In this document: positions 38,900 to 40,972 of the stretch, in pieces
Position numbering within the stretch: position 1 is the stretch's first letter
Layout: each line of letters begins with the position of its first letter
Assembly (NCBI GenBank): GCA_963821425.1
Contig: CAWGDS010000002.1
Coordinates: forward strand, 115,775-179,774
Length of the DNA stretch: 64,000 nucleotides
Direction of reading: 5' to 3'
Source: an uncultured Solirubrobacteraceae bacterium
GTDB lineage: Bacteria > Actinomycetota > Thermoleophilia > Solirubrobacterales > Solirubrobacteraceae
Notes under the pieces: generated by a model
What the model saw: only the letters and a program-made list of their open reading frames with translations
Databases searched by the model: none
Told to the model about the DNA's origin: nothing
Made by a program: the position numbers and the translations under genes

Positions 38900-39946
38900 A
38901 TGGGCATGCTCAGCTATCTGACAGGTTTTGGCGGTCGCGACATGGCGGTCGATCTCGGCACGGCCAACACGCTCGTGTACGTCCGCGGACGCGGCATCGT
39001 GCTATCCGAGCCGAGCGTGGTGGCGATCGACTCTCGCACCGGCGAAGTGCACGCGGTCGGCATCGAGGCCAAGCGCATGCTCGGGCGCACCCCGGGGACG
39101 ATCCAGGCGATCAGGCCCCTGAAGGACGGTGTGATCGCCGACTTCGACGTCACCGAGCAGATGCTCAGGCACTTCATCCAGAAGGTCCACCAGAACCGCT
39201 GGGCCCATCCCCGCGTGGTGGTTTGCGTCCCCTCCGGCGTGACCGGCGTCGAGAAGCGGGCCGTCGAGGAGGCCTGCCTGTCCGCCGGGGCCCGTACCGC
39301 GTACCTGATCGAGGAGCCGATGGCGGCCGCGATCGGGGCCGGGCTCCCGGTCGGGGAGCCCACCGGCTCGATGGTCGTGGACATCGGCGGGGGAACCTCC
39401 GAGGTGGCCGTGATCTCGCTCGGCGGGATCGTGGTCTCGCAGTCGATCCGTGTCGGCGGCGACGAGATGGACGAGGCGATCATCAACTACGCCAAGCGCG
39501 AGTACAAGCTCCTGATCGGCCAGCAGACCGCCGAGGAGCTGAAGCTCGAGATCGGCTCGGCCTGCCCGATGGCCGAGGAGCTGCAGGCAGAGATCCGCGG
39601 CCGCGACATGGTCGCCGGGCTGCCCAAGACGGTCGTGCTGACCAGCGAGGAGATCCGCACGGCGCTCGAGGAACCGCTCAACCAGATCATCGACGCCGTC
39701 AAGGAGACGCTCGACCGCACCCCTCCCGAGCTGGCCTCGGACATCATGGACCGCGGGATCATGCTCGCCGGGGGCGGCTCGCTGCTGCAGGGCCTCGATG
39801 AGCGCCTGCGCGAGGAGACCCAGATGCCGGCCCATCTCGCCGAGTCGCCGCTGACCTGCGTGGCGGTCGGCTCCGGACGCTCGCTGGAGGAGTTCGAGGC
39901 GATTCACCGCTCCAACCGCAACTCCCGCAACCGCCGGCGCCGGTGA
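38900..39946 (+). CDS. mreB: Rod shape-determining protein MreB
   Basis: [47 protein letters not shown] and [14 protein letters not shown]. Confidence 0.95.
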
Positions 39947-40018
39947 GTCGCCAGGTGGCGGCTCGACCGCCCGCCACGGGGGTACTCTTGTGGTTGAACG
40001 CTCCGGAAGGTTCTCTCG

Positions 40019-40972
40019 GTGCATGACAAGACCGTACGGAGACGCCGGGCAGTGCTCGTACTGCTCGTGGTGCTCTCCCTGCTACTGCTGACGGCATATT
40101 TCGGTGAGGCCCCCAGCGGGCGCCTGCACGGCGTGCAGCGCGCCTTTCTGACGGTCGTCTCGCCGATCCAGAACGGCGCCAACAAGGCGCTGAAGCCGGT
40201 CCGGGACACGATCGGCTGGTTCGGCGAAACGCTCAGCGCCAAAGGCCAGCGCGACAAGCTCAAGCGCGAAAACGACGCCCTGCGCAAGAAGCTGGTCGCC
40301 GATCAGAGCGAAAAAACCGCTCTGCGCCAGCTGCAGGCCCTCTACCACCTAGACCAGCTCGGGGCCGGCGAATACCACCCGGTGACGGCCACGGTGGTGG
40401 CCAAATCCCCCAACATCTGGTACGCCACCGTCACGATCGATGCCGGCAGCAACGCGGGCGTGCGCGTCGATGACCCGGTCATCAACGGCGAAGGGCTGGT
40501 GGGGAAGGTCGCCCAGGTCGCCTCCGACGGCGCCCAGGTGGACCTCGTCACGGACAGCTCGATGGGGGTCTCTGCGCGCCTGGCCAAAAGCACGGCCACC
40601 GGGATCATCCAGCCCAAGGTGGGCGAACCGGGAGACCTGCTGCTGCAGTACCTGCCCTCCACCACGCAGCCCAACACGGGCGAATTCGTGGTCACCTCAG
40701 GCACCGTGGCGAGCCCCGACGACTCCCTCTACCCGCCGGGGCTGCTGATCGGGCAGGTGAGCTCGGTCAACGAAGAAACCGGCTTCAAGTCCGTCAACGT
40801 GCATCCTTCGGTCAACCTCCAGAACCTCGACACCGTCCAGGTGCTGACCTCCAGCGCCGGCTCGCGGGCGACCACCATCGCCAGCCTCGCCGCCCAGCTG
40901 CCCGCCGGCAAGGGCGCCTCCGGCAGCGAAGCGGGGGCCGAACAGTACGCCTCGAACGGCAGCGGCGGATGA
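40019..40972 (+). CDS. mreC: Rod shape-determining protein MreC
   Basis: GTG start. A TM anchor and coiled coil (LKRENDALRKKL) are followed by VINGEGLVGKV and FVVTSG...YPPGLLIGQV. Confidence 0.9.
   Translation: MHDKTVRRRRAVLVLLVVLSLLLLTAYFGEAPSGRLHGVQRAFLTVVSPIQNGANKALKPVRDTIGWFGETLSAKGQRDKLKRENDALRKKLVADQSEKTALRQLQALYHLDQLGAGEYHPVTATVVAKSPNIWYATVTIDAGSNAGVRVDDPVINGEGLVGKVAQVASDGAQVDLVTDSSMGVSARLAKSTATGIIQPKVGEPGDLLLQYLPSTTQPNTGEFVVTSGTVASPDDSLYPPGLLIGQVSSVNEETGFKSVNVHPSVNLQNLDTVQVLTSSAGSRATTIASLAAQLPAGKGASGSEAGAEQYASNGSGG

Follow-up and report, generated by a model that had tools for sequence, protein, structure and literature searches.

Glutamate codon choice follows the membrane side of the encoded residue in one clade of Thermoleophilia

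Two neighbouring genes, mreB and mreC, spell glutamate (Glu) differently in the window studied here, which is the whole stretch of 64,000 nucleotides that was analysed (positions 115,775 to 179,774 of contig CAWGDS010000002.1, assembly GCA_963821425.1) and comes from an uncultured Solirubrobacteraceae bacterium of the Thermoleophilia. The gene mreB (38900..39946, + strand; Pfam MreB_Mbl in the gene table of locus L001), whose product is a cytoplasmic actin-like protein, is the reference case for the default state with 31 GAG and two GAA codons, while mreC (40052..40972, + strand, with a start possibly at 40019), which encodes an N-in anchor followed by an extracytoplasmic domain, has one GAG and 11 GAA. 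The question raised by this locus is what decides between two codons for the same amino acid. An earlier reading, made from the sequence alone, had named protein location, with GAG in cytoplasmic and membrane-embedded products and GAA in exported ones. The analysis presented here shows that the membrane side of the residue sets the synonymous choice, both between operon neighbours and within genes: Glu that is cytoplasmic or embedded in the membrane is encoded by GAG in ∼90–100% of cases, which is the genome default, and translocated Glu is encoded by GAA in ∼50–90%.

Membrane side and the choice of Glu codon

The window has a GC content of ∼70% and an actinobacterial-type gene order (tig-clpP-clpX ... 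folC-ndk-maf-mreB-mreC-mreD-pbp2-rodA-rne-rplU-rpmA-obg-proB-proA-nadD-rsfS). Its MreB is 100% identical to the MreB of an uncultured Solirubrobacteraceae metagenome-assembled genome (MAG), and the nearest 80 mreB loci belong to Thermoleophilia without exception. Look-ups of exact proteins for mreC and for two genes at the window edges gave no match. The organism is a monoderm actinobacterium, and the products that the sequence-only reading called periplasmic are therefore to be understood as extracytoplasmic. In-frame Glu codons were counted on our own gene call and are given throughout as GAG/GAA, with the GAA fraction (fGAA) defined as GAA/(GAA+GAG). Genes were classed from N-terminal signal or anchor segments and transmembrane (TM) content, with backing from Pfam for the exported genes.

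Across the window, Glu is encoded by 933/259 codons, next to 564 CAG and 23 CAA, and 704 GAC and 90 GAT. The fGAA of the 12 extracytoplasmic genes ranges from 0.45 to 0.92 and that of the 33 cytoplasmic genes from 0 to 0.18, with zero overlap (Mann-Whitney p = 3.8e-7), which bears out the proposed dependence on location; every hand count on which that proposal had been based (mreB, mreC, mreD, clpP, tig, the hydrolases, the secreted protein, SLT and PBP2) was recovered exactly. The strongest GAA case is a secreted GDSL/SGNH hydrolase with a signal peptide (28446..29594, + strand; Pfam Lipase_GDSL; 3/26), in which lysine (Lys) is encoded by 12 AAG and 13 AAA and the GC content at the third position of four-fold degenerate codons (four-fold GC3) is 0.91. 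A secreted protein with a signal peptide and no Pfam match (6844..7851, + strand; 5/16) is likewise in the GAA state, and GAA is in the majority in an exported lytic transglycosylase with an SLT domain (22434..25076, + strand; Pfam SLT/SLT_2; 5/14), in the N-anchored, extracytoplasmic haem chaperone CcmE (18958..19374, + strand; Pfam CcmE; 2/4), and in an exported protein with a signal peptide and no Pfam family (17661..18530, + strand; 5/7). Another secreted protein with a signal peptide (53762..54994, + strand; 7/14), earlier taken for a second SGNH hydrolase, has no Pfam match, and a probable lipoprotein without a Pfam family (3297..4313, − strand; 9/13) has the lipobox L-S-A-C in frame upstream of its first start call. 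The solute-binding lipoprotein, of the iron type, of an adjacent ATP-binding cassette (ABC) transporter (14590..15693, − strand; Pfam SBP_bac_6/8/11/1) is mixed at 11/12, as the sequence-only reading had also recorded.

The GAG state is shown by the ATPase from the operon of this lipoprotein and its permease, which is cytoplasmic (11906..12994, − strand; 35/0), by the polytopic membrane protein MreD (40969..41547, + strand; 6/0), and by tig (31800..33239, + strand; 67/1), encoding trigger factor. This protein is cytoplasmic and abundant and, evolving fast in the clade described below, served as a control for evolutionary rate. Further cytoplasmic controls are clpX (33915..35195, + strand; 40/6) and rne, encoding RNase E/G (44879..46894, + strand; 69/4), while clpP has 12/2 and a LysR-type regulator 22/3.

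The location rule stands insofar as codon choice tracks the compartment; it does not stand with the gene as its unit, since polytopic proteins and the mosaic FtsH show that the unit is the membrane side of the residue. In the window, the N-terminal tails of three bitopic proteins hold 9/0 codons, and their extracytoplasmic parts, together with MreC (whose tail has no Glu), hold 24/49. The key case within a gene is an N-anchored polysaccharide deacetylase (10887..11870, − strand) with a cytoplasmic tail of 45 amino acids (5/0) and an extracytoplasmic portion with 6/9; a second N-anchored deacetylase (9863..10885, − strand; Pfam Polysacc_deac_1) is a mosaic as well (tail 2/0, extracytoplasmic portion 3/7). 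In 76 anchored-deacetylase orthologs that are 51–80% identical, the tails hold 137/12 codons and the remainder 568/538 (Fisher p = 3e-24), which amounts to 8% GAA in the tails and 49% in the extracellular domains. PBP2 (41544..43526, + strand; PBP_dimer and Transpeptidase; 16/22), with a tail, an anchor and a large extracytoplasmic domain, divides into 2/0 in the cytoplasmic tail and 14/22 in the extracytoplasmic portion.

Proteins in which the cytoplasmic part does not come first, or that cross the membrane several times, divide in the same manner. In FtsH from seven clade genomes, with a textbook topology that is confirmed by Pfam FtsH_ext, AAA and Peptidase_M41, the outer loop has 21/29 codons (58% GAA) and the cytoplasmic AAA+/protease domain 231/25 (10%; p = 4e-13), the direction being the same in 7/7 genomes. 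RodA (FTSW_RODA_SPOVE; 43523..44719, + strand; 5/2) is a mosaic with 10 TM segments and a large outer loop, and its clade orthologs have 32/12 codons in cytoplasmic segments, 53/49 in extracytoplasmic segments and 24/0 in TM segments, with no such difference in the outgroup. The ABC permease (12991..14580, − strand; 12 TM) in the operon of the solute-binding lipoprotein has 11/0 in its inside loops and 3/3 in its outside loops, its topology having been assigned by the positive-inside rule (46 vs. 13 Lys plus arginine residues), a predictor that was dependable for only a few polytopic proteins. Membrane-embedded Glu is GAG in both the permease and RodA. A small protein encoded 3' of ccmF (21621-21962, + strand; 11/2) has a TM segment at its N-terminus and, at its C-terminus, an acidic tail flanked by Arg; its codon ratio is consistent with an N-out/C-in orientation that places the tail in the cytoplasm.

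The position of the switch was resolved in 85 independent exported genes aligned on their hydrophobic segment. Upstream of this segment there are 98/5 codons (5% GAA), from +0 to +5 behind it 5/0 (0%), from +6 to +20 13/24 (65%), and from +21 to the C-terminus GAA makes up 43–59%, so that fGAA is about flat, at ∼45–68%, from +6 to past +250. The switch is a lag-free step ∼6 residues behind the hydrophobic segment. The lone GAG of mreC lies directly behind its anchor and has been kept as GAG in 17/17 clade genomes. The distinction drawn earlier from the rare-codon bias of signal peptides is upheld, as the signal side is GAG and the whole translocated domain is GAA-rich. Within the n-regions of signal peptides, taken as the 20 residues before the hydrophobic core in loci L087–L166, Lys has 16 AAG and 14 AAA (47% AAA) and Glu 6% GAA; this AAA agrees with the bias known from the 5' ends of secretory genes, a phenomenon other than the Glu effect in mature domains.

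The contrast is real and very large, and it is essentially confined to the Glu codon pair. In a pooled comparison of 121 extracytoplasmic with 265 cytoplasmic clade genes (the window and loci L087–L166), the odds ratio for GAA is 7.9 (p = 8e-234), while the weak rise of AAA for Lys that had been suspected is confirmed with an odds ratio of 1.7 (p = 9e-6). AGG makes up 0.080 of arginine codons in the extracytoplasmic and 0.047 in the cytoplasmic set (odds ratio 1.7, p = 8e-7) with AGA and CGA the same in both, a rise that may reflect the substitution neighbourhoods of domains rich in Ser, Gly, Thr and Lys. No other A- or T-ending codon is enriched in the pooled exported domains, where CAA (.055 vs..081 in the cytoplasmic set), GAT, AAT and ATT are slightly lower and the other codon families are slightly more G/C-biased. 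In the window itself, the two sets do not differ in their use of CAA, GAT or any four-fold NNA codon, with near-equal values in the extracytoplasmic and cytoplasmic genes for GGA (.080/.076), AGG (.051/.052), CAA (.043/.040) and GCA (.049/.045). GGC was also seen to be up and GGG down in the extracytoplasmic domains of the pooled genes.

A separate observation on Lys codons concerns rplU (46964-47620, + strand), in which ribosomal protein L21 carries a low-complexity C-terminal tail of ∼115 amino acids rich in Lys, Ala, Pro and Glu. Lys is encoded by 28 AAA and one AAG in this tail and by one AAA and nine AAG in the globular domain, and Glu in the tail is 11/0. The AAA-rich tail is limited to the window and its closest relatives (loci L008, L009, L012 and L013), the L21 of other clade members and of outgroups having shorter tails with AAG. 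It is probably the expansion of a repeat unit that contains AAA and stands apart from the topology rule.

Several ordinary causes of codon bias were tried and do not account for the contrast. It is not a relaxation of GC3, since the four-fold GC3 of the GAA-rich genes remains at 0.90–0.97, in agreement with the earlier remark that there is no general drop; nor is it a mark of foreign or atypical DNA, as the syntenic core genes mreC, pbp2 and ftsH are affected and the partition runs within genes. The contrast persists in out-of-sample genes, contrary to the refutation that the sequence-only reading had proposed, and withstands control for local GC (with the same four-fold GC3) and for gene age or evolutionary rate: with in-clade identities of 65, 57 and 67%, tig, maf and folC have an fGAA of 0.04, 0.07 and 0.08, respectively, against 0.80 in mreC (61%) and 0.60 in pbp2 (66%). 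Optimisation linked to expression is not supported, as regulator types taken as weakly expressed (LysR) and the abundant tig are both GAG. Because the split is found within single genes, causes acting on a gene or a whole mRNA (expression, horizontal transfer, or a regulon defined by codon counts) are excluded. The GAG-encoded C-terminal cytoplasmic domain of FtsH excludes both an effect of the 5' end and an effect of membrane-tethered ribosomes, and, the boundary being without lag, threading of the upstream chain during decoding was rejected as a cause. Whatever the flanking base, fGAA is 0.57–0.75 in exported and 0.06–0.13 in cytoplasmic genes, and the context given by neighbouring bases or by the next residue was rejected as the cause. 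Avoidance of Shine-Dalgarno-like sequences (of the GGAGG type) receives no backing from the usage of GGA, AGG and GGG, AGG being if anything higher, and a general preference for slow or rare codons fails as GAA alone is strongly enriched.

A derived trait of one clade

The rule is confined to a single monophyletic clade of Solirubrobacteraceae, in which it is a derived trait, and is not general to high-GC bacteria. Orthologs were compared around mreB between clade loci (L008–L023 and L042) and outgroup loci (L024–L086); three near-identical contigs, L002, L003 and L004 (European Nucleotide Archive ERZ25039517, ERZ25039587), were excluded from codon counts, and the finding of tig, clpX, pbp2 and rne in pieces on them indicates assemblies rich in frameshifts. 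Orthologs of mreB have 5–6% GAA in all 80 loci, while GAA-rich mreC and pbp2 are found only in the 17–18 closest relatives, the remaining mreB loci being of the GAG type, among them those of Conexibacter stalactiti, Solirubrobacter phytolaccae, Thermoleophilaceae and Gaiellaceae. The clade orthologs of mreC sum to 42/169, and outgroup orthologs are GAG (e.g., 10/0, 14/0 and 22/0). With an automated classifier, fGAA is 0.52–0.91 in extracytoplasmic and 0.06–0.12 in cytoplasmic genes in each clade genome, whereas extracytoplasmic values in outgroup genomes lie at 0–0.24 (pooled, 0.060 vs. 0.068). In a neighbour-joining tree for which only cytoplasmic proteins were used, all carriers of the trait (17/17 genomes) form one clade, the sister lineage has a value of 0.00, and the trait is also missing from ∼55 other Thermoleophilia. 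That the trait arose once speaks for a heritable change that acts in trans. Four-fold sites within the clade are near saturation (identity 0.55–0.60), and since 17/17 genomes keep the trait nonetheless, it has been maintained and not just inherited.

A faint contrast was observed outside the clade in Conexibacter stalactiti KCTC 39840 (locus L029, NZ_JAYWIT010000037.1), with extracytoplasmic genes at 47/14 (0.23) and cytoplasmic genes at 0.07, mreC having 9/3 and pbp2 31/6. This could be noise, or a weak tendency that is either independent or ancestral.

The contrast was also found in another region and another collection, in practically all loci of 5 kb or more among the Joint Genome Institute metagenome contigs around the deacetylase. 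In six more neighbourhoods, on MAG contigs of megabase scale with independent gene calls, extracytoplasmic genes have an fGAA of 0.50–0.94 and cytoplasmic genes mostly 0–0.22 (Mann-Whitney p = 3e-5). Outliers that had been classed as cytoplasmic, with an fGAA of 0.54–0.70, are a YkuD gene (L170, 16564-17553), a Melibiase gene (L170, 19627-20934) and a Peripla_BP_4 gene (L172, 18482-19618); these Pfam families are extracytoplasmic or plausibly secreted and were overlooked by the hydrophobicity heuristic, which means that the codon ratio predicts location. Seemingly cytoplasmic exceptions with an fGAA of 0.36–0.42 were also seen, namely an IclR gene (L167, 1075-1944; 14/8), an AbiEi gene (L167, 17712-18491; 7/5) and a gene at 14208-14621 of L170 (9/5), and these may be true exceptions, genes that are mobile or were acquired recently, or noise from small numbers.

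Within exported domains, GAA prevails at most Glu, as the sequence-only reading had it, but this does not extend to invariant, functionally critical extracytoplasmic Glu, which remain GAG. Invariant Glu columns of MreC, PBP2 and RodA hold 58/2 codons. In PBP2, the universally conserved Glu 155, 214 and 442 are GAG in the clade, while 267 and 360 are GAA in 14/14. Aligned Glu pairs tend to keep their codon: in PBP2, both members are GAA in 1089 pairs and both GAG in 843, with 406 mixed pairs against ∼1150 expected, and the corresponding numbers for MreC are 677, 168 and 76; part of this excess of retention is due to incomplete saturation of synonymous sites. The two kinds of site also differ in the residues with which they exchange in exported domains, these being D, S, N, G, T and Q at GAA sites, which are variable positions, and Q, K, R, A and V at GAG sites.

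Cytoplasmic proteins (alignments of tig, clpP, clpX, folC, ndk, maf, mreB, rne and obg) show a related pattern, with GAA at 4.4% of Glu in invariant and 9.4% in variable columns of the clade, and 6.0 and 7.6%, respectively, in the outgroup. For Lys, AAA makes up 0.7% (4/607) in invariant and 14% in variable columns of the clade, and 2.4 and 3.6% in the outgroup, though low-complexity tails rich in Lys, as in RNase E and L21, may contribute some of the AAA at variable sites. A shift in composition from Asp to Glu was noted for the clade in both compartments, with clade and outgroup values of 6.9 and 4.3% E and 3.5 and 5.6% D in PBP2, 14.1 and 13.2% E and 5.9 and 7.5% D in tig, and 10.4 and 8.1% E in maf. 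This shift may be tied to the same ancestral change in the decoding of Glu and Asp.

Possible mechanisms

The choice is held by selection, not by mutation or drift, and GAA is still read as Glu. Other choices between G and A in the same segments fall at ∼5–10% A, and a GAA share of 50–90% is therefore no neutral equilibrium but shows that GAA is positively favoured at translocated Glu that is not critical. A tentative explanation, to which we give odds well short of even, is that a change in decoding by tRNAs with U at the wobble position (U34) made GAA slow or costly in the clade, and that this is exploited in translocated segments. In the ancestor of the clade, a trans-acting change in the supply or the wobble modification of tRNA-Glu(UUC), and less so of tRNA-Lys(UUU), would have reduced the speed and fidelity of decoding at GAA (and AAA) relative to GAG (and AAG). 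The modification xm5s2U34 occurs in tRNAs for Glu, Lys and Gln, and an effect on Glu with a weak one on Lys fits the A-ending split-box codons read by tRNAs with modified U34. The cost would bar GAA from invariant, critical residues everywhere, and slower, less faithful decoding of GAA and AAA would account for the clade-specific cost at invariant sites. Segments that cross the membrane unfolded might in turn gain from slower elongation at Glu, which is frequent and mostly surface-exposed, either because synthesis would be matched to targeting and translocation or because premature folding in the cytoplasm would be blocked, and GAA would hence be positively selected at non-critical Glu in every translocated segment.

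Several results weigh against such an explanation. GAA is favoured already at 6–20 residues past the signal or anchor, and a step without lag means that the boundary maps onto the protein and not onto the ribosomal state during decoding. GAA would have to be uniquely slow, as enrichment is seen for none of the other rare or A/T-ending codons and several are depleted. The tRNA-Gln(UUG) normally carries the same U34 modification, and its codon CAA shows no enrichment; the Lys effect is missing in the FtsH loop, which has 61 AAG and three AAA. Many of the substrates may, moreover, be exported post-translationally, in which case the speed of elongation should matter little. There is a substantial remaining probability that the mechanism is one that has not yet been conceived.

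The only RNA gene called in the window by ARAGORN and Rfam is a tRNA-Gly(CCC) (909-982, + strand), which is kept beside the deacetylase region in several metagenomic relatives, and a tRNA-Pro(GGG) called by ARAGORN inside pbp2 of L001, on the opposite strand, is probably a false positive. Among all 172 loci, ARAGORN found no gene for tRNA-Glu or tRNA-Lys(UUU). No convincing twin-arginine (Tat) substrates, which could be set against those of Sec, are present in the examined loci.

An unlikely alternative places the signal at the level of the gene, with GAA (and AAA) as a tag on mRNAs for envelope proteins and exoproteins that is tuned through the charging, abundance, thiolation or toxin cleavage of tRNA-Glu(UUC). 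The GAA-rich set is indeed coherent, consisting of secreted hydrolases, binding proteins and proteins of cell-wall synthesis, Glu and Lys are the amino acids whose codons are read by modified-U34 tRNAs, and a trans-acting regulator would be in keeping with the single origin. Analogues are modification-tunable transcripts, the tRNA-based systems bldA/TTA and MazF-mt9/tRNA-Lys, and the selective charging of isoacceptors in starved cells, and a eukaryotic one exists in the AA-ending codons of secreted-effector mRNAs of Magnaporthe oryzae (bioRxiv 10.1101/2025.11.10.687658). A count per mRNA, however, predicts no partition of the kind that topology imposes within the single mRNAs of the deacetylase and FtsH, and it gives no reason for GAA to be restricted to the outer loops of housekeeping proteins such as FtsH, RodA and the ABC permease, or for the invariant Glu of exported domains to stay GAG.

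Less probable again is that GAA and GAG are not truly synonymous in the clade, with tRNA(UUC) delivering an ambiguous or chemically altered residue, or a mixture of residues, that resembles Glu enough to serve at many sites and is used on the extracytoplasmic face. Examples would be a partial misincorporation of Asp, Gln or Lys, or a Glu derivative borne on the tRNA, that is tolerated or useful outside but not at critical Glu. Models of this type alone predict directly that codon choice switches at the membrane boundary without lag, and this one would agree with the way in which GAA and GAG sites of one domain act like distinct residue types in codon retention and exchange partners, with the finding that invariant Glu avoids GAA more strongly in the clade than in the outgroup, and with the single origin. 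If it were true, it would explain all of these at once and would mean a cryptic expansion or ambiguity of the genetic code that is specific to one compartment. Outright codon reassignment was rejected, as clade GAA codons of cytoplasmic proteins, at columns that are at least 80% conserved in the outgroup, stand against E in 91 cases, D in 14, Q in four and G in three. This alignment with Glu also counts against non-equivalence, as does the fact that GAA remains at invariant Glu (3.5–4.4% in the clade vs. 5.9–6.0% in the outgroup, in some columns in 8–11 of 17 genomes) and that GAA and GAG alternate at the strictly conserved Glu 625 of PBP2; the prior probability is low, and behaviour resembling that of residue types is also expected from selection for accuracy at sensitive sites.

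Relaxed selection combined with a mutational push from GAG to GAA (and AAG to AAA) that is specific to the clade and dependent on context, GAG being kept as the accurate or efficient codon where a mistranslated, misfolded protein is toxic inside the cell and selection being relaxed for residues that leave it, is a touch more doubtful still. A lesion or methylation that depends on a motif could provide the specificity for clade and codon, and critical Glu are GAG in both compartments with more GAA at variable sites. A strand-symmetric hotspot should, however, also be visible on the reverse complement, and no excess of NNT was found before TCN or TTN (0.080 and 0.070 vs. 0.089), while flanking bases barely matter. 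Young or transient Glu codons are not the source either, as transient sites in fast-evolving cytoplasmic proteins have an fGAA of 0.07 (93% GAG), the same as persistent sites, and persistent sites outside still have 0.48. Ancestry from Asp does not suffice as a cause: at columns of conserved Asp, clade Glu is 56/14 in cytoplasmic but 3/9 in exported proteins. Selection would, in addition, have to be stronger on each Glu codon of weakly expressed cytoplasmic regulators than on abundant binding lipoproteins, and the remaining codon families are not relaxed in exported domains. An artefact of composition or annotation (foreign DNA, GC dips, expression, rate, context, Shine-Dalgarno avoidance or miscalled genes) is scarcely credible, for although the GC content is slightly lower in the stretches that hold the two window genes richest in GAA, and fGAA is slightly higher before G in both compartments, the contrast reappears when genes are called independently and in MAGs of several projects, and this explanation is already refuted.

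Significance and relation to known systems

Synonymous codons are assumed to be silent on the destination of a residue, yet here one pair reports topology residue by residue with an ∼8-fold contrast. Something in decoding, translocation or the function of extracytoplasmic proteins tells GAA from GAG, and this is open to experiment, making the clade a natural system for the coupling of elongation or decoding to protein export. In practical terms, GAA/(GAA+GAG) can serve as a predictor of topology and of the secretome for an abundant uncultured soil lineage, and codon-usage models that assume a single population, expression proxies and codon-optimisation schemes would mislead here.

A full-text literature search, the coverage of which was incomplete, found no description of a synonymous split resolved by topology in bacteria. 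The nearest comparison in terms of export is the codon bias of signal peptides. Power, Zalucki and Jennings reportedly described a bias toward non-optimal codons, and toward AAA for Lys, in signal peptides of E. coli; similar reports exist for Streptomyces, and the bias is modest, widespread, concerns rare codons generally and is limited to the first codons. The likeness lies in codon usage being linked to export, and AAA stands at 47% in the n-regions here too, but in the clade the signal side is GAG and the whole translocated domain is affected, through one codon pair, in a near-binary manner and in a single lineage.

Pauses that aid targeting form a second group. Képès is said to have described a '+70 pause' in elongation for membrane targeting, and Pechmann and colleagues reportedly found in 2014 that clusters of non-optimal codons lie 35–40 codons past segments bound by the signal recognition particle. 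Pauses at Shine-Dalgarno-like sequences have reportedly been described in mRNAs for membrane proteins of E. coli (Fluman et al., 2014; PMC4359368). In these systems, synonymous choice tunes elongation for targeting or translocation, as in the mechanism that we tentatively put first. The known pauses, however, occupy a local window after a TM segment or signal, lag behind it and can be made by any slow codon or Shine-Dalgarno-like motif, whereas the pattern seen here has no lag, no localisation within the domain, no Shine-Dalgarno signature and no other slow codon.

In the fungus Magnaporthe oryzae, AA-ending codons are enriched in the mRNAs of 'cytoplasmic effectors', which are secreted into host cells (bioRxiv 10.1101/2025.11.10.687658), and this bias is reported to depend on thiolation of tRNA U34 (PMC11705076). 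As in the clade, A-ending split-box codons distinguish a secreted class and a family of tRNAs with modified U34 is implicated. The Magnaporthe case is nevertheless eukaryotic, concerns whole mRNAs and AAA, GAA and CAA jointly, and separates two routes of secretion, while in the clade CAA is uninvolved, the units are segments within one mRNA, and all extracytoplasmic segments take part.

Regulons based on rare codons offer a different parallel. In Streptomyces, bldA governs a regulon through TTA, a codon absent from housekeeping genes, and in M. tuberculosis the cleavage of tRNA-Lys(UUU) by a toxin (MazF-mt9) reprograms translation; selective charging of isoacceptors under starvation is said to have been described by Elf and colleagues in 2003. 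What the systems have in common is a single codon with its own tRNA that sets functionally related genes of a high-GC actinobacterium apart, but such tags work at the level of the gene, and here GAA is present at ∼5–13% in cytoplasmic housekeeping genes and is partitioned by topology. Changes of the code itself are known from the bacterial reassignments of Arg codons of the type found by Codetta, and from Candida, where the ambiguity of CUG between Ser and Leu is linked to variation of the cell surface. These resemble the trait in being restricted to a clade, in having a single origin and distinct substitution partners, and in their link to the cell surface, but GAA here is aligned with Glu and tolerated at invariant Glu, and no reassignment is detectable. 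Each of these near systems shares one aspect with the trait yet fails on the defining features that were tested.

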